DNA of 64,000 nucleotides from Psammoneis japonica (GCA_008632985.1 QPGO01000027.1:186001-250000), one strand, 5' to 3'. Shown: positions 16,085-60,100, counted from the first letter of the stretch. Notes: generated by a model from the sequence alone, not told the origin. Numbers and translations: made by a program.

Positions 16085-17006
16085 ATTGTCAACCCATTGA
16101 GCAACCGCCATCGTCGTCGTTGATTTACCAACAATGCTGTTTCAATCCCACGTGGACCTCCGTGTGTGTTCTACATGCATCGGCAAGTCTGCGCGCATTC
16201 AACACCAGGGCATCGGCAGGAAGTTAATGTCACCGTCAAGTCTCCTCACCGCTGGATGTCTGGATTGATTGCACTGCCTTTGATCGCTGAAGACATGTGT
16301 TCAACGGTCACATCCAAGTCCATCCTTGATCAACATCCCTTGACATGCCTGTTCCTCGGTTGACGGTCAAGAACCCCACATGTTCAAGGATCTTAGTCGC
16401 TGAAGACACATGCACACACACACATCTTCACGGCCAAGAACCTTTGCCCACTCTTCGGACTGCGGTTTTGCTGCCACTCTACAAGCACACCGAGTCCATT
16501 GCACCTGATCTGCCCCGGACTGCTGGTGCTCTGCAGTTCTGCTGGGTCCACGAGGACGACTGTGAGAGCAAGTGGCCGTGATTGCAGCCTGCGTTGGGGC
16601 GAGGGTGCTTTCCCGCGTTTGTTCGTTCGTCCACAGCGCCTGACGCCCACGTCAACTGGCCAGCCTGATCGGGAAATCCAACCGACATAAAATGAGAACG
16701 GTTCGGGGGTCTTGTCCACCTCTGGTCAGCTTGCCTGCAGGGGTTTACAACCCGCTGCTCCGCTCGTAAGCAACCCAAAGCGCCACCAGCTGCGGGTTCG
16801 GACGTGCCGGCACAACTCTACGGACCGGACAGGAAGTTTAGCACTTGACAACGAACGGGACAGCAAAGCCCGGCGACTTCTGATTTTAAGACAGTTCAAG
16901 ATTTCAAGTCAAGTCCATTTCAAGTCAAGTCCATTCTCACCCAAGTTTCGAGTCTGCCTTCGCTTCCCAACCAGAATTGATTGTCCTGACACCACTTTTG
17001 TCTACC

Positions 17007-20000
17007 ATGGTTCTCACTCGTCAGCAACAAACCGATGGTTTCAAGCACGTTGTTGGAACCATGCTTGCCCATGGTGCTGGGAGTCCTCTTCATTTGGCTT
17101 TGGCCCAAGACGGCACGGACTTGCATCAGGAACTGTTCACATTCATGCCGTCCCAAATCGACTCGCTTGAGTGCGACAACGGCACCAATGTGATCCCTTT
17201 GCCCCGTGGTTATAAGAACATGTTAGCAGCACCAGTCAGTCTGTACATTGTCAAAGCACACAAAGGTCTTGACGTTGCCAACGACTCCTCTTTGTTCACG
17301 CATGACGAGTTCCTTGCCTGCCGCCTCAGCCCCGACTGCATGTCTTCTGTGTCCATCGGCAGCTCACCCCTTGCACCTCCGCATGTCACCAACCCGACCA
17401 AGGCACGCGACCCGGTGCGGGACTTCAAGCGAGGCATCAAGCGTGATCCCACTGCTTTCACGGCTCTCAAATCCAACAAGCAGTGGCACACTTGGCACAC
17501 CTCACTTGTGGCACAAGCCCGTGCCCAAGACGTCGAGTGCACTCTAAACTCGTCGTACAAACCGACCAGCCCCGAAGACAAACTGCTCTTTGCTGAACAG
17601 CAAAAGCACATGTTCGCCGTCTTCGAACGCATCCTTCTCACCGACAAGGGCAAGGCTCTCATTCGCGAAAATGTGGGGTCTTCTGACGCACAGACCGTCC
17701 ACCGCGCCTTGTCTGAGTGCGCGCTTGCCTCCACCCGCGCATCTGTCGAGTCCTCCACCCTGCTCACGCACCTCACCACCGCACGTCTTGGTGATGGTGC
17801 TTGGAAAGGTCCGACCCACGGGTTCATCCTTCATTGGCAAGATCAGTTGCGCAAGTACGAGGCACTCATCCCGGCCAGTGACCACTTCTCTGAAGGACAG
17901 AAGCGCGTCATGCTCGAGAATGCCGTGCACCCTGTCGAGGAACTCCGTGCTGTCAAGAACCAAGCTGATCAGCGTCGTACGCAGAGTGGCAAGAGCCTCA
18001 CATACGATCAACACTGTGGCTTGCTCCTCTCCGTGGCAGCTCAGCACGACAGTGTGTTTCAACCCAAGATGACACCTCGAGCTCCCCGATGCGCCATGTG
18101 CGCACACGACGTCTGCTCCGAGGAACCGTCCGACGATGTGTTCTGCGACATTGACAGCGACATTGACGTCCTTCAGGCCAATGCTGCCTGCACCCGCAAT
18201 CCCAGCCTCACCGGTGACCAATGGAGACGTCTCCCTCCCGACCACCAACGGATCTGGGATTCGTTGCCCGACTCCTCCAAGGCGATCATCCTTGAGCATT
18301 CTCGTCCGCCTCCCCGCAACCCGCGAGCCAGCAACTGCCATGAGTCTGTTACGGCCAACCTTCACGACCAACGCCTTGGGAGTGACGGTGATGTCAACTT
18401 GTCCAACACGACTCCTGCTGACTCTGGTGACTCCGCTCCAAATGTGGACGCCAATTCGGATGGTCCCATCATGGCGCACCTCACCAAGCGCAAGTCACTG
18501 CCACCCGGTGATCTGCAACGTCTGTTGTCTCCTAACCAAGCCCCCAATGCTGGTCGACCGGGGCCATCCGCCGCTTCCTCTGCCCCGCCAGCTTCTGCAG
18601 ATGACGTGGAACTTAACGGCCGCACTTGCCGCCGCGTCGACAACCACAATGTCATTTGCTCTGCCTCTGCTCATCGCTCCACACGCACTGGCGCTCTAGT
18701 CGATCGTGGGGCCAACGGCGGCATTGCTGGCGACGACGTTCGCGTCATTGCACGCACCTCTCGCCAAGTCGACGTTCAGGGCATTGACGATCATCAATTG
18801 GTGGACATCCCCATTGTCACCGCTGGTGCCGTCATTGAGACCCAGCGTGGTCCCGTCATCGCCATCCTCCATCAGTGCGCATGCACGGGCAAGGGCAAGA
18901 CCATCCATTCCTGCGGCCAGCTCGAATGGCACAAACAGGATGTCAACGATCGCTCTGTCAAGGTGCCCAACGGCTTGCAACGCATTGCCACTCCTGATGG
19001 CTGTGTCATCCCCATTGACATCAAGGCCGGCCTGCCTTGTGTTGCCATGCGACCTTACACTGACGCCGAATGGGACACCCTGCCCCATGTCATCCTCACC
19101 GGTGATGACACATGGGACCCTTCCGTCCTCGATCACTCTGTCACTGACGACGACCAGTGGTGCGACGCGATCTCTGACCTGCAGGACGATCCCACTGCCA
19201 ACCTGTTTGACGAGTGCGGCAACTACCGTCATCGTGTCGTTGTCAACGAGACCATCATGTCCGCTTCCTTGTCTGCCGATCACGCGTCCGCCCTCGATGA
19301 TCACCTCATTCCGAACAACAACGTGTTCTACGAGTGTCATCTACATGCGATTGACCCCAAGGGCGATGACGTTCCGCCTCCGGAGCGCACTGTACAGCCC
19401 AAGGACCCCCCCTTCGAGTCTCTTCGGCCTCACTTTGGCTTCCCACCTGCCGATGCGGTCCGTCGTACTTTTGACTGCACCACGCAGTGCGCCCGCATGC
19501 CCGCCGGCACACACCTTTGGAAGGCCTGCAAATCACCCAACCCCGCCCTTAATGTGCACCGCCGCAACGAGCCTGTCGCCACTGACACCGTTTGTGCCGA
19601 CACCCCGGCCGTCGACTCTGGTTGCACCAGTGCCCAACTGTTTGTTGGCACCGAGTCTACCGTCACTGACGTCTACGGCACTAAGACGGACAAAGAGTTT
19701 GTCAACACACTCGAGGATCAGATCCGTGAACGTGGTGCCCCATCCAAACTCATTAGCGACCGTGCTCAAGTTGAGATCAGCAACAAAGTGCTCGGGATCC
19801 TACGCGCCCTCTTCATCTCCAGCTGGCAAAGTGAGCCTCACCAGCAACACCAAAACTTTGCCGAGCGTCGACACCAGACCGTGAAGCGCATGGCGTGCAC
19901 TGTCATGGATCGTTTTGGTTCGCCCGCCCACACATGGCTGCTGGCGCTCATGTGCGTGTGCTTCACACTCAACCACACAGCGTCCCCACGTCTCCACTGG

Positions 20001-22780
20001 TGCACGCCCCTCGAGACTCTCACTGGCTCCACCCTGGACATCAGCCCATTGCTTCGCTTTCACTGGTGGGAACCCGTGTGCTTCCACCTCGATGACTCCG
20101 ATTGGCCGTCCGAATCCCGTGAGTTGCATGGACGCTTCGTTGGCATTGCTGAGCACGTCGGCCACCAGATGACCTTCAAGATTCTATCTGACGAGACTCA
20201 GAAGATCCTCTGCCGGTCCAACGTCCGCTCTGCTGCCACCGATCCTGCCGTTTGAAACCTGCGTCTTGATCCTCCTGATGGGGAGCCACCTGAACCCATC
20301 ATCAAATCTCGCCATGACGACAACCCCGTCGATTCTCCTGATGGGGAGATCAGGACACCCAAGATGCCAGTTTTCGATCTGCAAGACATCATTGGACGTA
20401 CCTTCCTCATGCAGCCACAAGAGGACGGACAACGCCACAGAGCTCGCATCGTCAAGGCCGTCGAAGACCACAAATGGAAAGTGAACGGCAATCCCGAGCT
20501 CACTAAGTTCGTCTGCTCTGTCAACAATGATGAACACGAGGAAGTCCTTGCCTGCAATGACATCATGAATCACATTGAGCAAGAAGACGAAGACACTGCC
20601 ATTTGGAAATTTCGACGCATCGTGTCACACGAAGGACCTCTGAAGCCTCACGACCCAACCTGGAAAGGCTCAAGCTACAACATCATGCTTGAATGGGAAA
20701 GTGGGGAGATCACGTCCAAGCCTCTTGCCATCATCGCCAAGGACGACCCCGTCACCTGTGCCATCTACGCACGAGAGAACGGACTCCTCGACACGGATGG
20801 CTGGAAGCGGTTCCGCACCATCGCGAGGCGCCAAAAGAAGCCATTTCGCATGGCCAACCAAGCCAAGCTTCACTCCTTCCGCACTGCACCTCGCTGCAAG
20901 TGTGGATACGAAGTTCCCCGGAACCACAAACACGCCATGTCACTAGACGAACGCAACGGCAACCGCAAGTGGGGAGACGCAACTAATCTCGAGATGGACC
21001 AACTCAACGAATACGAAGTCTTCCATGACTGCGGGCCCTTCAAGTCTTCCACTCCTCCTGCAGGACACAAGAAGATCCGAGTGCACCTGGTGTACGACGT
21101 GAAACACGACGGTCGCCACAAGGCACGACTTGTAGCCGACGGGCACCTCACGGACGTACCTGTCGACAGTGTCTGCTCCGGAGCACCATGACTGCGGGCC
21201 CTTCAAGTCTTCCACTCCTCCTGCGGGACACAAGAAGATCCGAGTGCACCTGGTGTACGACGTGAAACACGACGGTCGCCACAAGGCACGACTCGTAGCC
21301 GACGGGCACCTCACAGACGCACCTGTCGACAGTGTCTGCTCCGGAGCAGTCTCCCTCCGTGGCCTTCGGCTGATGATTTTCCTGGCCGAACTCAACGAGT
21401 TGGAGACATGGGCCACCGACATTGGCAATGCCCACCTTGAAGCCACCACCAAGGAGAAGCTTTACATTGCAGCCGGACCCGAATTTGGCAAACTCGAAGG
21501 ACACATCCTTGTCATCCACAAGGCACTGTATGGACTGCGCAGCTCCGGTCTCCGCTGGCACGAGCGCTTCGCCGACTGCCTGCGAGCTGAAGGCTTCTTC
21601 CCCTGCCGCGCCGAACCCGACATTTGGATGCGCAGGAACGGCGACCACTGTGAACACATTGCCGTTTATGTGGATGACCTCGCCATTGCCATGAAGGACC
21701 CTCAATCTTTCGTCGACACTCTCACGGAAAAGCACAAGTTCAAGCTCAAGGGTGCGGGACCCATTGAGTTCCATCTGGGTTGCGACTTTTCCCGGGATCC
21801 CGACGGAACCTTGTGCCTGTCTCCGCGCAAGTACATCGAGCGCATGGTCGACAGCTGCGCCCGACTGTTTGGGGAGAAACCTGCCACCAACGCCCTGTCA
21901 CCTCTGGAGAAGGGTGACCACCCCGAACTGGACACTTCCGAACTGCTGGGACCCGATGGCATTCACAAGTTCCAGTCTCTTGTTGGTTCACTCCAATGGG
22001 CAGTGTCCCTTGGTCGAATTGACATCACCACGGCCGTCATGTCACTCTCTAGCTTCCGAGCTGCACCCCGTCAAGGCCACTTGGATCGTGCCAAACGCGT
22101 CTGTGGGCACCTCTCCAAGATGCGACACGGTGCTCTCCGCGTTCGCACGGAAGAGCCCGACCATTCGGATCTCCCTGCTCCGGCCTGTGAATGGATGCAT
22201 TCCGTGTGTGGCGAATCAGAAGAGATGATCCCGAAGGATGCTCCACCAACCCCTTGGCAAGTTCGTCACCACCACCCACTGCGTCGATGCAAACTTGTGC
22301 CATTGCATGCTCACCGGACGCTCTGTCATGGGAATGCTCCACTTCCTCAACAAATTCCCGGCTGATTGGTTCTCTGAGAAGCAAGCCACCGTGGAGACTG
22401 CGACCTGCGGGTCTGAATTTGTTGCCGCAAGGACTTGTGTTGAGCAGATTGTCGACCTGCGCATCACCCTGCGCCACCTTGGCGTCCCGATCCGCAATGT
22501 CAGTTGCATGTTCGGTGACAACAAGTCGGTTGTGGACAGTGCCACCATCCCGCACTCCAAGTTACACAAGCGACACACCGCACTGTCGTTCCACCGTGTG
22601 CGTGAGGCAATTGCCTCTGGTTGCCTTGAGCTCCACTTCATCGAAGGCTCCCGCAACCCTGCTGACATTCTCAGCAAGCATTGGGGTCACTCCCAAATCT
22701 GGGACCTTCTCCGCCCCCTCATGTTCTGGAACTTCATTCCATCCGAAGTTGAATCTGTTTCTGTGACTCCTCAAGCAAAC
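17007..22780 (+). pseudogene. Copia gag-pol polyprotein (Gag, aspartic protease, integrase, RT, RNase H) with a nonsense codon and frameshifts
   Basis: PR: ALVDRGANGG. IN: VATDTV, LISDRAQVE, SEPHQQHQNFAERR. RT: HKARLVADG, TDIGNAHL, LYGLRSSG, VYVDDL. RH: ETATCGSEF, FGDNKSV, NPADILSK. Lesions: in-frame TGA at 20253-20255 (likely from CGA), a 163-bp duplication and a frameshift near 22250. Confidence 0.93.
21023..21348 (+). repeat. 163-bp tandem duplication inside RT
   Basis: 21023-21185 is repeated at 21186-21348 with 4 substitutions. The length is not a multiple of 3, so it frameshifts RT. Confidence 0.95.
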
Positions 22781-22787
22781 TGGGGAG

Positions 22788-23063
22788 TGACAGGATTTGA
22801 ACAGGATTTGGGTGCGCGCGAAGTGTCGCGCGCTGTTCAGTTTACCGCGCACAGTTTTGTGTGCTTTGGCTCCGCGCGTTCACGCGCGATGTAGTTTGCT
22901 TTCGAGCCACAAGGCTCACAAGAACAACAACAGCAGCCTGATTGTGCCAACTTGCACATCTTTCGGCTCCTGTGACGGTCTCTGAGCGGAGACTCATCTG
23001 CCATTTAGACAGCAGTGAGGAGTTGTTGTTTGAATCCTTGCCATTTGCCTTCAATTTCTGTCA
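22788..23063 (+). repeat. 3' LTR
   Basis: Direct repeat of the 5' LTR, followed by TSD TGTGC. Confidence 0.97.
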
Positions 23064-23994
23064 TGTGCTGCTGGCAAATTTGCTCACAACCTCCTCTTCT
23101 TCTTGGCCTTCACCCACACGTTTGTTCCTTCTGACAAAACCACAGCTCATCTTCAGACAACCACATTGTGGCATGGCCCAGTCAAAGTTGTTTGGCCAAA
23201 CAACAGCAGAGCAGTGTTTGTGAGCAGACAACCTGATTTTCTGAGTTCCAGGGGCTGGCTGCAGCCACGGCAGCCAATGCAGAAAAAAGAAGCGCTGCAA
23301 AAAAAGGAGATTGCTCAACCAGCCAACAAAATGTGCTGGTTGACCCTTGCACCACTTCCACCCCATTTTTTTTCTGAAAAAACAAAAGGTTCAGAGACTG
23401 GCAACTCCACAGTGCACACCGCTTTCTCCACAGAGTGGTTGGGCACCCAGAGAAACTTGGTGTGCAGCATGTTGCAAAAGCACATGTGTGTGGACTGGCG
23501 CTTGCACTCTCTTTGCAAACTGGCAAGATGAACAAAGCCCAAATGGTGATGAAAAGAATTGTGTGGTGGAAGCCGAGTGTGGCACGTCAATGGCACCCCC
23601 CGAAACATCTCCGGTGCGCAGAGGACACGACCTTGAGAGAAAGCCAGACCATTGGAGTGAGCAAGAAAAGTGCACAGCAGCTGCTGCTCTCTGCTCTAGA
23701 TCAGCCGCTGCTCTCTGCTAGAGCAGAGAGACAGAGAGTGTGTGTGCATTCTGGGGGGGGTCTCCAGCCAGCTGCTGGCTGAAGAATTTTGTGTGCCAGT
23801 AGAAATTGCGCTGAAAGAGTCTGTGAATCTGTGCGTTAGGGGGTTTTGGTGAACGCTGGACGACGGACTCGTCTTCTCTTGCGTAGGGGGAACCTACGTA
23901 AAAATTGTACCTACCGGTACTTGCAAAACCCCAAACGGTGTCTGTTTTTGTTGTCATCTCACATTCATCAATGTCTCAACACTATTGACTCCAT

Positions 23995-24737
23995 ATGAAG
24001 ACCATCGTGCTTTTCCTTTTCTTGTTTACTAGCCTTTCGAGTGCCTTTGTCTTCCCTCCCGTTGTGTTCCATACATCACCAACACCAATTCCATTGCAAA
24101 TGTCGTCAGATCATCCCTTTTGCAATCTTCCGGGTGATCCATCGCTCATTCTCACCACCAATGTCGATTTGGGTGACAAAAAGATGGAAATAATGAAGGG
24201 TAATGAAAGAATGGAAAAAATTGCAGCTGTCATGTACAAGTAGATTAGGCTCGAGACTCACTCACATCTTTCTTTCTTCAGCCATTTCCAAGGCGATTGC
24301 CAACCGAACGGGCAAACCCGAATCTTATGTTGGTGCGTTGTGTTGATGCACTCTTGCTCTAAAAGTCTCTCGGTGATGTAAGGCATTCTCATCTCAATAT
24401 TCTTCTACTCATATACTCAACACAGCTGTTTCCATTAATGACAAGGCTGACGTGATTTTTGGTGGTTCCGACGATCCAACGGCTCTGGGGTGTGTCTACT
24501 CGATTGGTGCCATTGCCACGGAAAGCAATGGACAAATCACAAACGATGTGAGTTTTAATTGATTGGAAAATGTTATTGCATGATTCATAGTTCTCACCTT
24601 TGAGAAACGTCTCGTCTCTGTTTTAGGTTTCCGAGCAATTGGAGGCCTTTGGTGTCGCTGCGAACCGCATCTACATTAACTTCTTCGACATGCCCCGTGG
24701 CAATGTCGGTTGGTCGGGACGTACCTTTGCGGGGTAG
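23995..24737 (+). CDS. MIF: MIF/D-dopachrome tautomerase family protein with bipartite plastid-targeting presequence; exons 23995-24199, 24282-24332, 24426-24547, 24627-24737
   Basis: Three GT-AG introns splice to PSLILTTNV...[18 protein letters not shown]...FGGSDDPTA...SIGAI...[22 protein letters not shown]. The signal peptide ends SSA|FVF (ASAF-like motif). Confidence 0.9.
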
Positions 24738-25309
24738 AACTTGACGACCATTTGTCCGTTGGGGAAACGTCCAAGGATAGTGGAGCAAGACCCAGGCTTT
24801 ACGTGAGTGTTGGTATCAAGCTGCAGTTAGTAATCGTAGTAAGTTCGAATCTTTTCTCGACTTTAGTTTATAAAATGGAAAATTAGAAAATCGTCATTGC
24901 GACTTTCAAGTTGCACTCTAGGGGTTTAGCTTGGAGAAAACGAGAGCTTGGTTTTGATCTTAACTGCTGTCAACGGTTGATTCCTCGGAAATTTCGAAAA
25001 CAGAGAGTTGCACAAGTCGACATCGCATCAACGCCTGATCCAACAATCCTAAAGAGCGTAGGACTCTCATCGCCCAAGCCACTTGAAAACGAGGACCTAC
25101 CCTGCGCACCATATACAGTGTAGCATAGCATCCGCCATGGTTCCGAATCTTTCGCCAGATGTGCCCGACGACAATCGAGTGTTCTAAGGAGGAACGCAAG
25201 CCCATCAGTTTGTGGAAAACGTTGGCGTGAACAATAGTGTGGCGGCGGTAAGAAAGAAGGCAAAATGTGGTATCAAAGGTTTCTCGAGTGCAAGAAGGTG
25301 ACGTGACTG

Positions 25310-25605: not shown

Positions 25606-28600
25606 TCAGCGAACCTCCCGCTTTCGTGCGAGAGAGAACATGGTGCCAAGCGCAAGCACCAAAAAGAATGCCAGCAGTACTCCGATGTTGCCACTAACTG
25701 AAGGCGGGTTATCAAATGCATAAATCTCGTTTACAAGGTCCTCATGCATAGTACCCCGAAAGAAACTCAGCGCAAGACCCTGCAACGTGTACTTGCAAGG
25801 GCTCACCCACTGTAACCAACTGATAAAGCTTTCCATGGATGGGAACGGGACAAAGCCACCCGATAAAGCGAGGCTCACAGTCACCACACCCGATCCCATT
25901 AAGAATGCCAAGTCCTGAGACGGGAGAATGATTGAATGAAAAAGCACCATGGCACTTCCGGTCAGTCCGCTCGTTATCAGAACGGCCAGATAAGTGAAGA
26001 ATGATTCCCACTTCTCCATCACAGGACTCCACAGGTTGCACATGTTGACAATAATTATGGTTTCGATTGTCGCCGCAATTATAATCACCCATGTTTCCAG
26101 AATGATTTGTGAAAGACAGTAAAGCCAAGGAGAATACAAACCAAGCGCACTTTCCGCCAGGTAGAACTTCTTGTCGTGGACAAACACCGGGATCATCGCA
26201 AAGGGTAACAGGTACGAAACCAATATGATAAATGTCATGGCCCCGACAACGGCGTTGATATCCACACCGATGTTCATGCCACCTTCAATATTGCCAACAT
26301 CCCAGAAAAGTAGTCCGTCCACTAAAGAGCATGCGGCATAGAGAACAATCCTACAGGCGAAATTCGCAATGTTGCGAATGTAGTGGTTTGTGAGATTGCG
26401 CTTGACTACAACTCGGAACTTCCACCATGAACCTGGGGGTTCTGCAATGTCGTAGTTCTTGTGCTCAATTGTAGAGACTAGGTCCTTGGATACATCTTGA
26501 CCTAGCGACAATGACGCCCTGGTTTCGTCTGATAGATTAGTAGCTTGAGCCACAATGTCTGACGGTAGATCGTACCAATCCGGCATCTGTACATGAAAAA
26601 CATCCTGGTAAAGATCTTCCAACAACAACGTCTCGTCGGAAAACACAGTTGTGCCTTTGTCGAGAAGCACGAGGCGGTCAAACTCGCGAAAAAGAGCTCC
26701 ACTGGGTTGATGAATCACCAACATAGCAGCCACCTTCTTTGATCTGCATAGTCGCTTCAGAAGGCGGGTCACCGACAATGCATTCTCTGAGTCCAGGCCA
26801 CTACGGCATCAAAAACAGCGATCAGCGCTTTTCTATTACAAAACCTCCAATTGCAAATTAAGATTAAGCATGAGATCGATAATTGTTACGGCACATACCT
26901 GGTGATCTCATCCAGAAATAATACCCGCGGCTTAAGGGCAAGAGCGCAAGCCACAGCGAGTCGCTTCCGCTCACCACCAGACATACCGCGAATAACAAGA
27001 CCGCCTGCGAGCTCGCCTCCGATTGGTCGCTGACAAGTCTCTCGACTACGTTTGAGCAACGGGGCACAAAATCAAAAAGGGTCAGAAAGAGTTTCCAAGA
27101 GCATTCATGTTCACGGAAGGCACAAAATCAGCACCGCACCTCAGCCCGACTTCATGCAGCACAGTTCGAATCCGGGACATGCGCACAGCATCGCCGCGAG
27201 GGTCCTTGCCAAGTTTTAGATTCGCCGCGAACGCAACAGCTTCCTCTGGAGTTTGCGTCGGGAAGAACGCTTCCTGCTGTGGTACATATGCGGCAACAGA
27301 ATAAAGAATGCTGTCTGCTATCCTATTCTGAGCCTCTCCAGCATAGCATTCATTGCCAAGTACTGAAAGTCTACCAGAGAGCGTCCCAAGAACCTTTCGC
27401 CCCGACAAAATGTCAAGAAGGGTGCTTTTACCAGAGCCGCTGCCTCCCATAATCGCTGTCAACTCCCCCGGGCGCAGCTCTCCGTGCGATTTCGTGAGAC
27501 TTATAATGTCGGCATCCGACGCACGCTTTCCACGATAGGAGCACGAAACACCCGACCACGACAGTAGTGCTGCTGGCGTCTCCGTAGCTTCTTGGTCCTC
27601 GAGACGTTCCATAGGATCATACTCTTCTCCCGCACGAGATGGGACTTTAGACTCCCTTCTGCTGTCCACAACCCCAACCCATGATGATGTCAATGTCGAT
27701 AGATTCCGCCAGCTTCCCCGTCTAGGTGTTACTGGCGCACTTTTACTTTTCTTGCTCCGAAGGAGTGTTATCGTAAAAACATATGCACTGAACAGAAATG
27801 CGATTGCTAGCAAAAAAATGGAAAATACCAGAGGAAATACTTCCGAAGCATTCTCGGCGTACCGATTCGCGTATTCCTCAAGAAACTGGTCAGACATGAA
27901 TTCGGCAAGCATATACACGGACGAAAGTACACCGGCGGACAATGGGAAACTTCGAAGAACCGACGAGTCAATGACACGAACTCCAGTCAGGCCTCCCATT
28001 AGCTTCAAGTCACCGTCGACGACACTGCCAACTGCACAGCCACCCACGAAATGGAAGTTGGTGCTCGACGACACGGACAGCCATTCTTGCATCGTCAAGT
28101 TTCCAGGGCCCAATTCCTTCATTTCAAAGTCCGGTGGAAAACTGCTGACGACCTCTTGCATCGCTTCGGTGCACTCTGCAGCTATTAAAAAGTCTCGGGG
28201 ATCTCCAAGGAAGTTGGTGTGGATTTTTGGCTCGGCGAAAGGGTCCTCGGCACTTGAAATACTCATGTTTCCAGTACTAACCGAGTTCATTTCACAAAGC
28301 GCCGCAAAAATGGGCTGATCTCTAGCCACGGAAGCGGCAAATGTGGATGTGTGATATGCCATGAGACCCGCTTTCCCTAGAGTACAGGTCGTTGCAACAC
28401 CGTATGGGCCACCTTCCCCAGCTTCAAATTGTTGCCGCGCATCGTTTGTCAGAAGGGTTGAATTATTAGCCCAGTCCAAAGGCCGCCCTTGGTATTCACC
28501 CAGAGCACCTACCACCAATCTTGCCTTAGTCTGCATACCAACGGGAAGGTCTGCAAGTATCTCAGTGACGCCCTTCTCCTTCAGCAATTCTGAAGGTCCA

Positions 28601-29541
28601 ATTCCCGACAGCTGCAGTAACTTGGGCGAACCGAATGGCCCTGCTGACAGAATAATTTCCTCATGTGCTGAAATCCTAATTCGATTATCAAGATCACCAG
28701 AGGAAGTTACAACAAACTCGATCGTATCAACATGCTTGGTCCCTTCGTGTGACTCAAGTAGTCTTGTGACTGTGGCCTCCTGAATAACAATGAGTGAACT
28801 TTTGCACGCGCCCTGGAGAGCTGGCTTCAAATGTACATCCTCGGCACTTAATCTACGACCATCTTCGTTACCAAACAGGAAATTCAGCTCAACTGTGTCC
28901 CCACCAGAGCCTCCTGGAACCAGCTCCTCTTCGTTGAGTTCAAAGCCTGTACGTACAAAAGCGTCAACTGCTTCTTTCGTGTAGTTTTGTTGAACCTTTT
29001 CAGCCGGCTGGGAGACAACCAAAGCTTTGCTCACCCGCTCAAAGACCCGGTTGGCAATTGGGGTGATCAAGCCATTAATCCCCCATTGCTCAACAGTGCC
29101 ATCGAGAGGAAGAGAGTATTGAAAAGCAATGTTGCTGGCCCCACCCAGAGTGGCCGCGTCATACATCATGACTTTTCGCCCCAATTCACCAGACATAGTG
29201 TCAAACAGACTTGGGTTCGGCTGAGATAAAATGCTGTTGTAGATGTCGTTTTGAGAAGCGCTTGGATTACGCAGGTATAGCAGCTCGTTTTGTCTGAAAT
29301 TGTTTGTAGGGAATTCTTGATCGGCAGTACGAGGAGCGCCACGTTCCAGCATAACAATCTTTGCTTTCGGAAGATCTTGACACAATCTTGAAGCCAAAAC
29401 ACAGCCGGCTGAACCTCCTCCCACAATTACAAAATCCGCTGATGTCGGAAGATTGTCCTTGCCGGCAACCAACATGGCTGCTTCGGTCAGTTGACCGGTC
29501 CAGAAGGGGGGGAAGCTCAGTAGCAGCAGTACAAGCAGCAT
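25606..29541 (-). CDS. GMC (glucose-methanol-choline) oxidoreductase / ABCG half-transporter fusion, ~1247 aa; exons 29541-27140, 27045-26899, 26800-25606
   Basis: Domain order: signal peptide; FAD motif DFVIVGGGSAGCVLASRL; EIILSAG.FGSPKLLQLSGIGP; C-terminal HFVGGCAVG..VVD..L...G..GVRVIDSS; one TM helix; Walker A GGSGSGKST in the same exon and frame. Spliced exon 2 gives MSGGERKR and LFLDEITSGLDS. Then H-loop VIHQPS and a six-helix ABC2 membrane domain. Exon lengths sum to 3744 nt, which is in frame. Confidence 0.9.
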
Positions 29542-30655
29542 GGTGATGCACGCAAAATGGAGATCATCCAGCAAAACGTATCTTCCTCCTTCTGGTCCCA
29601 GAAAGCGCTCGCTGAGAACAGCGGGGCTATCGATCGAGGCAGATGCCGCGGTTTGGGTTGTTGCAACTTCGTACCAGACGTAGTAGGAGTATGATGATGT
29701 GATGTGTTGGAAGTTCGAAGTTGCAATCTGTTGTTTTCTTTCTCAGAATTTTCATCACGGTCAGGCAGCGTGCGGTACAGTAACAGTAACGGTAGACGGA
29801 CGGACCGTGCGCAAAAGACGTAGAGTCTGTCCTGCGTTCACCGAAAACGCACTGCTCGACTGACTGATTCAATGCAAACACTGCACTCATGGCGCTGAGC
29901 CAACAACATGGCAAGTGCAATGTGACCTCTGCACCAAGGTTAACACCACCTTCAATGTTGCCAACATTCTAGAACTGCAGGCTGTCCATCAAAGAGCATG
30001 CACTGCAAAGAACAATCTGGTGCTCTGGGCACAAAGGAGTTTGCTGCACAGCGCATCTGGGACGCCAACAATCTGGGTCTGACCGTCTGCCACAATCTGG
30101 GCATTTCTTGACTTTAATGCCAGATTATTGTTAACTTATGAGCCAATTCTCTCCTTAAACATGACATGAGAACTGTGTGAGTTTATGAGCTTCTAAAACC
30201 TGGGTCGCTTCTCACTTTTTTAAGTGTGGTCATTCTTTTCACACAATGCTGACCTGCACCCCAATCAACATTTGCGGTTTCTCGTCATTTTAACACAAAT
30301 GTTGCCACTTATAATCCACCCTCCTTTTCCACCAACTCGTCCTACATTTCATCTCTTTGCCATGTCATTTTCAAATCCAAGTTCCCAATTGCCACACGTT
30401 CTTGCATCTAAACCGCATTGCAGAATGTTTTTTTTTATTTTCGCTTGTCCAGATTTTATTGTTTGTTTCAAATTGCGTTTACACACCAGTTTGGTTGGTG
30501 GCCATTTCGGCATTTGCTGCCGCTCCGTTGCCTGCAGCCACCGCCTGCAATGGCAGGTCCTCTCCCATCGGCGCCGCCCATCCTTCCTCTCTCTCCTTTC
30601 TTTTTTCCTCTCTCTTGCGTTTCTTGTTTTCCTCCTGAGACAAGTTGGTCTTCTC

Positions 30656-54122: not shown

Positions 54123-57100
54123 TTGCTGCAGCTCCATTGAATGAATGCAAGCGCAATGCAGCAGCAGCGCAACAGACCAGAGCAAAGTGAAATGATGTGT
54201 CTGGGGTGACCAAAGCAGCTGAGCAAAGAAGCCCCAAGTCACAGGACACATGATGAGACCAAGCAACAAAACTCCAATGCAATCACAAAAACACTTGCAC
54301 AAATGCAAAAACAAACCTCATGGCTTAAAGATGATCTGAGTGAGTTGAGAAAATGGAACAAATGGACAACAGCACAAGGCACTGCAGTGCATGTTGCCAA
54401 AGCTGTTGTGCAACAAAACATTGACGCACACCAGTGTTGTGTCCTGACTTGCAAAACAAGGACAATGAACAAACTGCACACAGCCTTGTTCACAATCATT
54501 TTTTGTCACAATTTTGTCAATGCCCAAAATCTTTGTGTCCTTGACCCTCAAACAAATCACAGGCTTAGAAGACAACAGCTCAGAGTGCACACCAAAAAAC
54601 CACTGAAACACAATGAAATGTCAAATGTTTCTCTGTGTTGATTTGCCATCAAGCTGACAGATGTGTGGTTTGTGAAGAGCTCCAGTGAGAAATCTGAACA
54701 AGCAAAACAAAGACATCAAAAATGCTGTGGGGCAAAATGGCCATCACAAGCCACAACAACAAACATGTTCCAGCCAAGAGTGAACCAAATTGTGCACAAA
54801 AAACAAACATTTGCATGATTTTTGCATGGTCCATGACTTGCAACCAAGCTTTTGCCATCAAAAGCATGGACTCGCCCAAGTGTCAATTCTTTGTAACACC
54901 AACAAGACTCACGCAAGTGTTTCAATGTCATTGGTTTTTGTGCTGTCAATGGTTTTCATTGCACTGAATGAACCACAATGCAACAGATGATTTTTGGCAA
55001 AAATGTTGAAGATTTGTGTGCATCAAATGTTTGCATGTCAATGCAAACCAGTCAATTGAGATGTTTTCTGGCAGCACAGGCATTTTGCCCACAAGGCTTC
55101 ATTGCACCAAATGTGATGTCGTGCAATCAGCATTGAGTCCGCTGAGCAATTTATGATGCACATCCCAACTGCCCACACTCTGGACATTGTTTGCCATTGG
55201 GATGCACTGCAACTGCTGTGCTGGGTTTGCACCAAACATGCTCCACAACAATCACCAACAGCTCCAACATTGAAACACACCTTTCAATGAAACAGGCATT
55301 TTGTCATTTTCTCACATTTGGTCATTCTCAGAATGTTCCAAAAGCATTTTTGAATTGCACCCAAACCACACCCGAAGTGAATCTTTGAAAAGGCCTGTCC
55401 ATGAAACACAATTTTTGACTGCACTCTGAGCAGATGAGTGCCCAACAAGTCTGCACAAACTCAATCCACCCACAGCAACAAAAACTTTGCCTGCTGTCCA
55501 TGGTCGCAGTGGCGTGCAGTGAGCATCACATGGCAAGAACAAAAAACATCAAGCACACAACACCCACAGAAGCACACACTTGCCATGTCAATGCACCCAT
55601 CCAAAACATTGTCAAGCACCAAAAAAGAATCCAGAGGCCAGTGCAGCAGGGTTGGAATGGATTTCAGAGCAGCAGCACTGTCGGTTCTTCATTTGTGCCA
55701 TGCTTTGCTCTGCAAGATGACACACAAGAAGGCATGCTGTGCAACTGTGTGGTGTTTGAAAAAAGGGGAAAAATGAAGAATTTTGATTTTTCTTGCACTT
55801 CCTTGTGTGAAGGAACACACCATCAGATTCACAGCACAGAGTTGCAAGGCAACAGTGAACTGGTGTTTTCATGACTTGAAGCTTTTCATTGACTCATTTG
55901 TTCATGAGGACAAATGTAAATTTGATCCCCAGAACAATGACCCTTGTGCCACAATGCTTTCAACTCAATGAAAATGGGAAACAAGGAGCAACCACTTGTT
56001 TGGGTGCACCCTGGCAGGTCTTGTCAGTGCAACCAAACATTTGCAAATGCGCGAGACATCATTTTGGATTTGCAAGTTTGTTCCCCAGTTGGTGACCATG
56101 CAAAATCTGTGTTTGCACATGGAAATGTCTGTTTTTGCACTTTTTTTGTTCACACAGCTGGAACACGTCAAACGCATGGCATGCCAAACATCAGAAAACA
56201 CTTTTTGGTGTTGTGCCATCCATGTTGCAGGGTGCAACTTGTGTGTGCAGGGTTGCCACAAGGTCCTCGCCCTCTTTCAGATTGTGCTCTGGAGCTTGTG
56301 TTAGAAAGAAAGACTTGCGTCATGGAGCATGTGATGATGTGTGGCACAACAGAGTGCCTGACATCACATTGGCCACCTGCAGTGGAAGTTCTGCTGACAA
56401 TTGTCACTGACTCTCCCAGTTGCAGCTCACCCAGAAGCACCCGCCACAGCTTCTTCAGCTTTTTGGTGCACTCCATCAGGAGACAAGCACACTCTCAATC
56501 TGCACAGGGTGGGATTTTTGATCCTTTTGTGTTTCCCCATGCCCAATCTAGCCACAACAACATCTGCTGGTTGTGATCCATGCCTTGGCAGAGCAGGAGC
56601 ATCTTTGACTTTCTCCCTCTGAAAAGGAGGAGCATTGTTGCATGCCAAACAATGCTGCTCTGAATGTGGATGGGACAACAAGCAGCAACGCAATTGTGAG
56701 CACCAGTGGGGACACCTGCACAAAGCATTCTCAGCATGTTGGTTGTTGTGCTTCTCTGGAAACTGGCCCAACAAATGCTCTGCCAGCACACTCCTGGCAG
56801 ATGAAGACAAACAAATGGAAAGCTGGAAATGTTTTAGAGCCAATGGGTCAATTTTGTGTGCACTGATCAAGCCTTTTGCCAGCCTCAAGTTGTCTTTGAG
56901 AATGCTGTCAACTGTGCATCCACCTGTCAAGTGCCAGAGTTGGTGCTCAACAAGGCTGTTGACTGGCCTCTTGCATGAATTTGACTGCACAGTCTGTCAT
57001 GACAAGAAAGTTTTGAAGATCTCTCAGAAAGTTGGTGTGTGGACCTCCAACCAAGCAAAAGCATCCTCCACAATTGAGGTGCTGATGCTTCCAGCTTCCA

Positions 57101-60100
57101 GTGCCAACTGAGTTTGGCTCATGGACAGCTGCAGTTGTTGGCTGGTCTCTTTTGTTGCAGAGTTCTTTGTGCAAAAGAGGATGTTTGAGTCAAAATCCCA
57201 AGGCCACATGGACCACCTTCTTTGCCAGTTTCAAACTGCCACCACTTTGCCTTGAATGCTGGAAGCATGCAGAGTCGTGATTTGCCTGGTCTGCTCTGGG
57301 CCATCTTCTCTTGTCATTCACACAGCACACCATCAAGAAGTCTTGCTGCTCTGGCATCCAACAGGAAGATCATCTTCTGCAAGAGTTTCCATGACACCCT
57401 CCATGTTGCTCAGCAACTCTGAGCCTGTGGTCTGTTGCCTGGAAACTGGGGCCATTTGGGTGCCCCACAGGGCCCTGCTGCTGACACCAGAGCAATCAAT
57501 TTCCTCTTCTTTGTTGAAAAATCATTGCTCTTGGACTCATTTCTCAAGATGCTGGCTGGCAGAGGACACCACAGACTGTGCCATCATGCCCTGACCCTTT
57601 TTGCAACTCAGGTGTTTTTTGATGGCAGCATTTTCCAAACAACAGAGAGCAAATTCTTGCAAACACTCAAGGGACTGTTCACTTTCAAAAGCACACCTCA
57701 CAAGAAACTCAACACAGCTGTGTTTGCTCACCCCCCACCCCCTGGAGCCAGTTTCTCTCAAAGCCATTGGCTGAAAAGGTGCTGGTTGCATCTTGTGCTG
57801 TTTGCTGTGCAACTTCTGCAAGCTCTGCAGTTCATGCACTGGGTGATGAATGTTTTTGTCTTTGACACAACCAAGTTTGTGGTGCAATCACACCTCTTCA
57901 CACTCACAAAATTTGACAATCAACCTGCTCTGTGCCATGATTGCAGTGCACAACAAAATGACACAAAATGACACCACCAAAGTTGCAAAGAATTGAGAGG
58001 GGGCTTGTGCACATGTGGAGCATGTGGCACATGACAAAAAATGTCAATGTTGCAGTCCAATGGTGCAAGGTCCCACCCAGAACCAGAGTGCATCTGCTGC
58101 TGAGCTGTGGAGCAACCAAAGTTTTGCTGACATGCTCCAAGACTTGGTTTGCAGCTTGGGCAATGAGGCCATCAATGCCCCGCTGTTGAGTCATGCCATC
58201 AAGCAGGAAAGTTGTTTTGTCCAAAAGTGTTTGCAGGGAGTTCTTGTTCACAGCAGAGCAACAGGAGCATGCTTGCTGCCACACTCCATTGTGACAAACC
58301 TTTGCTCCCAGAAGATCTTGGCACAATCTTGCCACAACTGCACAACCAGCTGAGCTTCCTCCTGTGACCACAAAGTTTGCCAATGCAGACAGGAAGTCCA
58401 TCCTTTTCTGCAACTGGCACATCTGCTCTTCAGCCAACTGGGCCAGCAGCACTGTGATGCAGCAAGGAAAGTTGCTCTCTGCAGCAATGGCTCAGTTTAA
58501 TGAAATGCCAACAGCTTCTCTTTTGGGCCTTTCAATGCTTGAAATGATTTGGTGTGACACCAAAAAAGCAACCACAAATGATGCTCAAAGGCTGTTTCCA
58601 TGACAAGTCTTTCAACATCTGCTTTGTGAGTCTTTGAGTGATGTCACAGCACTGCTGTGTGCAATTTTCAAACCCCACTTTTTGTTCTGCCTGTCATCCC
58701 AACTCATCAATTGCACCAAGGGGTCAACGTCAAATGAAATTTGGGGTGCACAGTTGAGGACTGGTGGAGAGGTTGGTTGGCAGTCGTCAAGTTTGGTTCC
58801 TTGGTCTGGCTCAGGTTAAAAAGCTGCCCTTGGAGAAGTTTTTACCAATTCAACAAACCCAGTTGCATTGACCCCACATGCCCATCACATGCTCCAGAGG
58901 CACTGCAGCAACAAGCTGCAGGAGATTGGCAATCCTTGTGGCACTCATGCTTGTGGTTCTAGAGAGGGGGTCAAAAGAATGTTGCTGTGTTGGGCCACTT
59001 TTCCATCCCAACTTGTGACTCATTGAGTTGACTTGATCATTCTTTGAGTCAACTCAATCACCAATCATTCACACATCATGACTGAAACATGACTGGATGC
59101 TCCATTGATGCACCCACACTTCCAAGCAAAAGGGGTCAAATCAACAACAGCAGGTGACCCAAGTCAGTTGAATGCAATCTAACTGGGCTCTTCCTTCATG
59201 TCCACAGACTCATCAAGGCCAAATGGTGGTTCCTTGGATGCAATCAAAAATGACAGCATGCTCACTCAGCTCACAAATCAAATTTGTTGCGGTGGGACCA
59301 TCAACACAGAGGAGTGTCAACCTGACAAGGCCACAACCTGACAGAATGCCGGTGTCACCTGTCACTGAAAAGAGCTGTGTCATCTTTCTTTGAGTTGTGG
59401 CAGTGCTGGCAGCTTTTGCACACTCCAATCCCATCCCAGCTTGTGCAGCTGCATGTGCACTCTCCAAAACCCATTGGCACACAACTCTTTCTGACAAATG
59501 ACGAGACATTGAGCTTCAAAATTCAGCCAGGTTTTGTTGTCAGTGGTCACTGACAGGAGCAACTGGCCATGCAACTCTCTGTTGCTTGTGACTTGTGAGG
59601 CAAATGACTGCCATTGGACAGTGTTGTTTTGCTGCCAGAGCATTCATTGGCATTGTTGGAAGCCTCCAAACTGATGTCTTAACTGAACTTGATTGTTTTG
59701 ATGTCAGCTTGAGAGCTCCTCAGAGCCACAGAGTCACAAGGTCTTCTGGATTGCAGCTCCAAGCCGCCGAGCAATTTTCCAAAAGAAAAGCAGCTGTTCC
59801 AAGATGATGATGCTGTGAGCTGAAGCAAAAATGCTGTCAAACATTCTGCCAAATGCCTTGGCCATGCAATCACCATCTGCAGTTTCTGCTTCAGCACCAG
59901 TCCCGTGAATGGTGAAATTTGTCCCCAAAGCTGGGGAGATCCATTTGCCAAATGCTTTTGCTGAGCTGCTTCTTCAAGGAACTTTTTCTGCCCATTTCTT
60001 CCAGCCAGCTTGCTGCCTGGCATTTGCATCTTTGTCTTTGATCTGTGCCTGGCTTGGTGTCAAAGCTGATTCCTCACTGTTGACATCTCAGTTGGAAACA

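Follow-up and report, generated by a model that had tools for sequence, protein, structure and literature searches.

Does one gene of Psammoneis japonica join a GMC oxidoreductase to an ABCG half-transporter and, if so, does the enzyme have anything to do with what the transporter moves? The question is raised by a locus within a 64,000-nucleotide stretch of this genome (GCA_008632985.1, QPGO01000027.1:186001-250000; hereafter the window), for which an initial annotation had proposed such a fusion. Our results confirmed that the GMC–ABCG fusion is a real gene, which is transcribed, spliced, and conserved. Joins of this kind turned out to have arisen several times from different GMC enzymes. 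A mechanism in which the pump exports an alcohol and the tethered enzyme oxidises it is the one we favour, tentatively.

Gene structure and transcript of the fusion

The gene lies on the minus strand, has three exons (29541-27140, 27045-26899, and 26800-25606), and encodes a product of 1247 amino acids. The model was picked among the enumerated two-intron models by canonical splice sites and by the continuity of the ABC motifs. Its features are the following.

27140..29541, minus strand: exon 1 (residues 1-801), with the leader, GMC domain, helix TM0, cytosolic linker, Walker A, and Q-loop
29479..29541, minus strand: putative cleavable signal peptide (residues 1-21), read by eye; P0001, P0002, and P0004 have the same cleavage context
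27868..29451, minus strand: GMC oxidoreductase domain (residues 31-558) of the secreted algal clade A, from Pfam, the structure model, and trees
29404..29421, minus strand: FAD-binding GxGxxG motif (residues 41-46), intact
28051..28053, minus strand: catalytic His497, which aligns with the His of 4ynt and 3red
27931..27933, minus strand: Gly537 at the second catalytic His/Asn position, where 4ynt and 3red have His
27766..27831, minus strand: extra transmembrane helix TM0 (about residues 571-592), from hydropathy, with a basic stretch after it
27421..27447, minus strand: Walker A (residues 699-707), canonical
27046..27139, minus strand: intron 1, 94 nt, GT-AG
26899..27045, minus strand: exon 2, with the ABC signature and Walker B
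26801..26898, minus strand: intron 2, 98 nt, GT-AG; type-B genomic open reading frames (ORFs) stop at the equivalent position
25606..26800, minus strand: exon 3, with the D-loop, H-loop, six-helix ABC2 membrane domain, and stop codon
25531..29708, minus strand: region covered by three X2 contigs that overlap, have no introns, and are taken as the mRNA

A single stop-free frame covers 27082-29742 on the minus strand, with its first Met at 29541. Pfam placed GMC_oxred_N (residues 36-334, E = 1.5e-15), GMC_oxred_C (residues 422-546, E = 1.9e-15), and part of ABC_tran (residues 685-797, E = 1.1e-9) in exon 1; ABC_tran continues into exon 2, and exon 3 has the ABC2_membrane match (E = 1.7e-30). Hydropathy gave one helix, TM0 (residues 571-589), ahead of the nucleotide-binding domain (NBD), and six hydrophobic segments after it. 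The stop-free frame, the Pfam matches, and the hydropathy profile bear out the proposal that one exon encodes a signal peptide, a complete GMC enzyme, one transmembrane helix, and Walker A. The two short introns of the initial annotation also stand, with a small correction to where the motifs lie relative to them: the signature and Walker B lie in exon 2, and the D-loop, H-loop, and membrane domain come after intron 2.

In run X2, one contig of 2243 nt (28610-26176, about residues 311-1058) omits exactly both introns, and includes His497, TM0, the entire NBD, and the first helices of the membrane domain. The neighbouring contigs overlap it by 30 nt and reach 29708 and 25531. The run is labelled 'DNA?'; we took it as a transcriptome from its contigs, because they skip both introns and an intron of the adjacent gene, and depth is zero at 24902-25303 and above 29725. 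The GMC and ABC parts were therefore found in a single mRNA, and a splicing artefact, which the initial annotation had dismissed, is contradicted by the continuous frame of exon 1 and by a spliced contig running from the GMC into the membrane domain. A stop or misassembly near 27700-27900 had been named as a possible flaw. A DNA contig of run X1 spans 26964-28596 across the junction with zero differences, and so there is none. Run X3 contributed no contig. X1 and X2 come from one sample and one study, perhaps the source of the assembly; their support is therefore orthogonal, not independent. A 16-codon frame that overlaps the start codon begins at an ATG in another frame, 26 nt before the start (window 29517-29567, minus strand).

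The GMC domain is predicted to lie in the lumen of the endoplasmic reticulum, Golgi, or vesicles, or outside the cell, with the NBD in the cytosol. This topology, as originally proposed, agrees with the hydrophobic leader and its shared cleavage context, with the basic residues past TM0, and with the need for the NBD to be cytosolic. Plastid-type bipartite signals are marked by an aromatic residue at position +1. The leader of the query has none there, and plastid targeting was rejected. In the structure model, the last GMC helix stops about 10 residues before TM0. In nine of the ten fusions checked, 19-29 residues separate TM0 from the last conserved GMC motif; in P0004 there are 75.

Relatives and origins of the two halves

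The GMC fold was confirmed by a structure model of residues 31-562 (pLDDT 93, pTM 0.93), which has the two-domain fold with the N-terminal GxGxxG motif and an active-site His. The best structure match was 8rpg (TM score 0.81, 24% identity); the model resembles GMC structures broadly, and therefore gives no pointer to the substrate. The putative catalytic His noticed earlier in NFHFVG is indeed present as His497. The canonical second active-site His/Asn, which is semi-conserved, is absent from the query in the sequence alignment, and Gly537 takes its place. Oxidase activity and the release of H2O2, both suggested initially, are therefore no more than putative. Of 24 clade-A rows, 23 have His at the first catalytic position and 22 have Gly at the second; three rows of the type-C group described below are also His/Gly, and seven of nine type-B rows are His/His. 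The His/Gly pair predates the fusion, because it is common to free secreted proteins of red algae and Ulva, and post-fusion decay at Gly537 was rejected on the same clade-wide pattern. The pair is unusual, was inherited from free ancestors, and is compatible with activity. The flavin-attachment loop is one residue shorter in the diatom subclade. Choline dehydrogenase, the database label of relatives, was rejected by scores far under the NCBIfam cut-offs for betA (104.6 of 732 bits) and PRK02106 (126.2 of 605 bits).

Relatives outside this species, which the initial annotation had suggested looking for, were found, and the fusions proved to be of three types. The GMC of type A, that of the query, occurs in four other clusters, with the ATPase domain confirmed in three. 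P0001, P0002, and P0003 carry GMC and ABC_tran in one ORF and are 45-49% identical to exon 1. The fourth, P0004, has the GMC, TM0, and the start of the NBD; its ORF ends before Walker A, hence the lack of a Pfam ABC match. Its GMC is 79% identical to that of P0001, and its ABCG tail is closest to P0171 (44%) and L033 (49%), with P0001 not among the 12 best matches of the tail. This partial evidence suggests that P0004 may be a further join on a different ABCG paralogue. Type B is an unrelated GMC on the ABCG clade of the query. A search with the divergent fused GMC returned 17 type-B clusters at E ≤ 6.5e-127 (next match 4.5e-24), all 17 with ABC_tran; eight are long enough for ABC2_membrane, including UniRef100_A0A7S3V5X4 of Chaetoceros debilis. 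Type C, with two clusters, P0232 (EukProt record GILJ01010466.1) and P0220, has a third GMC joined to different ABCGs.

The GMC tree comprised 53 rows; nine more were left out, of which five entered the 58-row approximately unbiased (AU) test. Type A nests in the clade formed by secreted GMCs of red algae, Ulva, and diatoms (100 in the Shimodaira–Hasegawa-like approximate likelihood ratio test, SH-aLRT). Type B joins the plant mandelonitrile-lyase-like P0297 (98 and 96 SH-aLRT), a placement with one plant row and a long-branch warning. Type C is a third group, sister to clade A. A mixture-model tree on 24 rows gave the same groupings. The AU test rejected a single clade of A and B (p = 1.7e-7, 58 rows) and of A and C (p = 3e-71). 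In the tree of the NBD and membrane domain (24 rows, 592 columns), the query, six type-B proteins, and eight enzyme-less proteins form one clade (100/100), with type C outside; this tree fixes the clade, not the branching order of the A, B, and enzyme-less branches. The NBD-only tree gave a support of 92/86 at the base of the clade. The GMC tree, the AU tests, and the ABCG tree therefore place two unrelated GMCs within a single ABCG lineage and the third on ABCGs outside it, showing that GMC–ABCG joins arose several times from different GMCs. Type A may have replaced an ancestral B fusion, or A and B may have been gained separately. In the genome (91.4 Mb, 597 contigs searched), we found at least two close members of the ABCG clade, the two GMC-A fusions, with no others and no type-B gene in the contigs; this pattern fits the replacement of one enzyme by another.

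Two free enzymes, P0005 and P0006, fall within the fused forms in the GMC trees. The free algal GMCs P0005, P0006, P0012, P0008, P0121, P0122, and P0137 have Lys-rich, Pro/Thr plus hydrophobic, or CBM1 tails, and P0006 also has an RxL motif and a wall-protein-like Ser/Lys-rich segment. N-glycosylation sequons were not significantly enriched in GMC-A (17 vs. 11.7; 76 of 1000 shuffles) or in GMC-C (64 of 1000 shuffles). The type-B GMC domains, whose rows are related, were sequon-rich (56 vs. 35.8, 0 of 1000 shuffles; bacterial control 9 vs. 20). No signal peptide was visible on the type-B proteins: in 16 of 17 the starting Met precedes the FAD-binding strand by 5-8 residues, and the 17th, P0191, is truncated. 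Thus P0165, P0182, and P0280-P0288 place a sequon-rich GMC of about 580 residues ahead of TM0 without a visible signal peptide. Among the proteins scanned, no recognised enzyme other than GMC was found on ABCGs. At one locus (L093:1074-4250), a single frame combines ABC_tran with a helix and a prenyltransferase alpha-alpha toroid domain, possibly another enzyme–ABC fusion.

The transporter half has one NBD followed by one ABC2-type membrane domain, as expected for a half-size ABCG. Walker A, Q-loop, signature, Walker B with the catalytic Glu, D-loop, and H-loop are all intact. The best NCBIfam ABC match, TIGR00955, was under its cut-off. The named members of the ABCG clade are diatoms, and identity to the other ABCG membrane domains of this genome is 20-32%; the nearest named relatives of both parts are likewise diatoms (Epithemia, Amphora, Stauroneis, and Chaetoceros). 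Some clade members carry other lumenal domains, namely a 240-residue domain of unknown kind (P0031, P0032) and a Cys-rich domain (P0204). A Cys-rich segment is common to P0204 (residues 351-443) and P0220 (residues 309-407; E = 5e-7), standing on a diatom-clade ABCG in the former and ahead of a GMC–ABCG fusion in the latter. The last Gly of Walker A is replaced by Ala, Ser, or Cys in 15 of the 17 type-B proteins. In a metagenome scan, three of 80 loci among the matches listed (L031-L033) fell in the clade, and a GMC was absent from all 80. The ESM Atlas gave ordinary ABCG clusters only (0.87-0.88); a 1297-residue Ascomycota cluster there, named 'FAD-dependent urate hydroxylase', showed ABC families only.

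Eleven lumenal segments of the enzyme-less members contained nine RxL[QEK] motifs against 0.8 expected (0 of 2000 shuffles), for a motif picked after viewing the sequences, in related rows, and with a twelfth row left out. The RXL motif is typical of diatom biosilica-associated proteins, according to the available text of PMC5525289 and PMC5647440. Such motifs point to a wall secretion route for the ABCG clade. No RxL motif was seen in the N-terminus of the query; the enrichment test covered the enzyme-less members.

A tandem copy with the same fusion and the same introns lies about 41 kb away (G000:C24:252771-256630, L006), at 80% DNA identity. Its being an allele was rejected by a synonymous divergence (dS) of 0.85 and by differing flanks. 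A 14-nt deletion, either recent or an assembly error, breaks its GMC frame. Between the copies, the ratio of nonsynonymous to synonymous divergence (dN/dS) was 0.14 for the GMC (521 codons, dS 0.85), not far from the 0.07-0.11 of the membrane domain; the portion of the NBD in exon 1 gave 0.32. The GMC value indicates that the enzyme domain was kept by purifying selection while fused. The last 177 codons of the copy are 97.7% identical to those of the query (dS 0.14 vs. 0.5-0.9 for most other parts), which suggests gene conversion over this segment. Two relics also lie in the window.

29932..30017, minus strand: decayed ABCG membrane-domain fragment (relic copy), adjoining a high-depth repeat
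56574..58473, minus strand: remains of one more tandem copy, with a decayed GMC and TM0

These relics are about 26 kb apart on the same strand, and are possibly one copy divided by repeat insertions; X1 depth climbs to about 2000-2800 from 29927. Among the neighbours, a multi-exon MIF/tautomerase-like gene (window 23992-24737, plus strand) has its Pfam MIF match in the last exon and an apparent plastid-type bipartite leader; its intron 24548-24626 is the one skipped in run X2. A Copia-type retroelement (RVT_2; window 16890-22894, plus strand) contains a short internal duplication near 21136-21250. Directly downstream of the tandem copy is a class 3 lipase gene (L006:2358-3608, minus strand), an association that may be due to chance.

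Possible coupling of export and oxidation

Half-size ABCGs act as homodimers, and the query presumably does so too, since its only close partner in the genome is the frameshifted tandem copy. The homodimer would then carry two GMC heads next to its exit side, some 10-15 residues clear of the membrane. The mechanism we favour, held at slightly less than an even chance, has the tethered GMC oxidise a lipid-like alcohol that the pump has brought to the outer leaflet. ATP hydrolysis would move an amphipathic hydroxylated substrate, for example a long-chain or isoprenoid alcohol, a sterol, or a hydroxy fatty acid, to the outer leaflet. The FAD domain would oxidise the substrate hydroxyl with His497 as the base, and the electrons would be handed to O2 or another acceptor. 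This step would probably lie on a route building the cell surface, and the protein would be a one-chain counterpart of the separate HOTHEAD-type GMC and ABCG proteins of the plant cuticle. Our preference is due to the repeated joining of GMCs at one position, the selection on the enzyme, the full retention of the fusion in type B, and the plant precedent. The repeated joins from different enzymes hint at a link between exporting and oxidising a molecule. A bolder version, which we regard as doubtful, is that single-chain export-and-oxidise machines evolved at least three times. In this version, a diatom ABCG lineage with two unrelated GMC heads would work on the wall or vesicle secretion route and build an oxidised, cutin-like lipid layer, and the His/Gly clade would be a new catalytic type.

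Several observations weigh against linked export and oxidation. The transporters nearest to the query, P0029 and P0034 (100/100; 64% and 61% identity over exon 3), have no GMC; before TM0 they carry a signal peptide and a stub of 40-60 residues and nothing else, which weakens the case for obligate coupling. A GMC is likewise absent from 17 of the 38 clade rows of the NBD tree, some of which are partial ORFs. Free clade-A enzymes bear other tethers, and the ABCG could be one more anchor: at least eight of 25 have other tails (three with a Pro/Thr spacer and a hydrophobic segment, four Lys-rich, and one CBM1). Finally, the two remaining type-B rows of the nine, P0201 and P0288, lack both His residues.

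Anchoring alone is the main rival. The lumenal N-terminus would be a tolerant slot, and a secreted oxidase would use the transporter for sorting or surface display, acting on an outside substrate (a sugar, mucilage, or a small alcohol) that the pump does not carry. The slot is variously empty (P0029, P0034), occupied by the 240-residue domain (P0031, P0032), Cys-rich (P0204), or filled with a GMC. The hydrophobic, Lys-rich, or CBM1 tails of the free clade-A enzymes fit the same picture, and the position of P0005 and P0006 among the fusions implies that the parts come apart easily. We consider this explanation rather unlikely. It leaves unexplained why GMCs of three lineages came to sit on ABCGs when the scanned proteins showed no other recognised enzyme there, and why all 17 GMC-B relatives are still fused.

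An improbable role for the GMC is that of a non-catalytic or weakly catalytic cap for binding or redox sensing, which would regulate the pump or pass substrate to or from it. The His/Gly pair, the shortened flavin-attachment loop of the diatom subclade, the absence of both His residues from P0201 and P0288, and the altered Walker A motifs of type B would suit a cap. However, the His/Gly pair (22 of 24 rows) is shared with the free secreted red-algal and Ulva proteins and is older than the fusion, and His497 is kept throughout clade A with one exception. Oxidation followed by uptake, in which the enzyme would convert an outside compound and the ABCG import the product, seems quite improbable. 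It is permitted by the topology, and a few plant ABCGs import, whereas most characterised ABCGs export. The RxL motifs of the GMC-less clade members point to an outgoing route (cf. the available text of PMC5525289 and PMC5647440). The present data leave virtually no room for an artefact or neutral read-through, in which two genes were merged by assembly or by the recent loss of a stop: the common sample and the 'DNA?' label would allow it, but the spliced contig crosses the junction, and the same fusion recurs in the tandem copy and in P0001-P0003 at 45-49% identity, so that misassembly was rejected.

The substrates of ABCGs are hard to find, and a fused enzyme would offer a direct handle on the cargo, because any compound oxidised by the GMC is a candidate. 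Independent, repeated GMC–ABCG joining makes testable a link that is only implied in plants. The locus also gives access to an uncharacterised clade of secreted algal GMCs with a His/Gly active site, and to a diatom clade of ABCGs in which the members lacking the enzyme carry the wall-protein RxL motif.

Comparison with known systems

The query resembles the half-size ABCGs of the White/ABCG2-like kind in its order of NBD and membrane domain, in its ABC_tran and ABC2_membrane matches, and in its intact motifs. It differs by the signal peptide, the flavoenzyme of 530 residues, and the extra helix ahead of the NBD. ABCGs with lumenal N-terminal domains are already known; no ABCG of a eukaryote is known to us that bears an enzyme on the outer side. 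Adp1 of yeast has a signal peptide, an EGF-like Cys-rich lumenal domain, and an extra helix before a half-size ABCG. Set against these features, with hydropathy as the guide, the query likewise has a signal peptide, a lumenal domain, and an extra helix before the NBD, but its lumenal domain has the GMC fold, and the Pfam scan found no EGF-like domain. The likeness to Adp1 drawn in the initial annotation therefore holds for the topology only.

Fatty acid photodecarboxylase (FAP) is an algal protein with a GMC fold like that of the query (TM score 0.82 to 6yrz). It lacks the catalytic His that the query keeps. An FAP identity was rejected by the sequence identity of about 21%, no better than to other GMCs, and by the secretory leader of the query. 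The secreted non-FAP GMCs of Gracilariopsis (P0020), Pyropia (P0019), Ulva (P0022), Epithemia (P0009), and Amphora (P0122) belong to the same clade and have the same His/Gly pair; those of red algae, Ulva, and diatoms are free-standing, whereas the query is fused. P0022 may be one of the ten non-FAP GMCs reported in Ulva by Moulin et al. (10.1101/2020.06.23.166330), a paper whose available text mentions no fusion. We found no biochemical characterisation of GMC clade A in the literature. Our literature search, with most subscription papers beyond reach, gave no description of a GMC–ABCG fusion, and the available text of PMC8359288 does not mention such a protein. The database entries of the relatives bear generic names only.

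The closest functional parallel is offered by plants. According to the available text of PMC12309059, omega-hydroxy fatty acids are oxidised by GMCs in plants, and precursors of this kind are carried by ABCGs, so that HOTHEAD/NP1 and ABCG proteins represent the same two families in one export-and-oxidise pathway (cutin, sporopollenin). They are encoded by separate genes in plants and form one chain in the query. The GMC-A domain of the query lies outside the plant HOTHEAD/mandelonitrile-lyase-like group, in the algal clade A, and type B alone joins P0297. Both parts come from known families, and the combination of a GMC on an ABCG appears to be the new feature.

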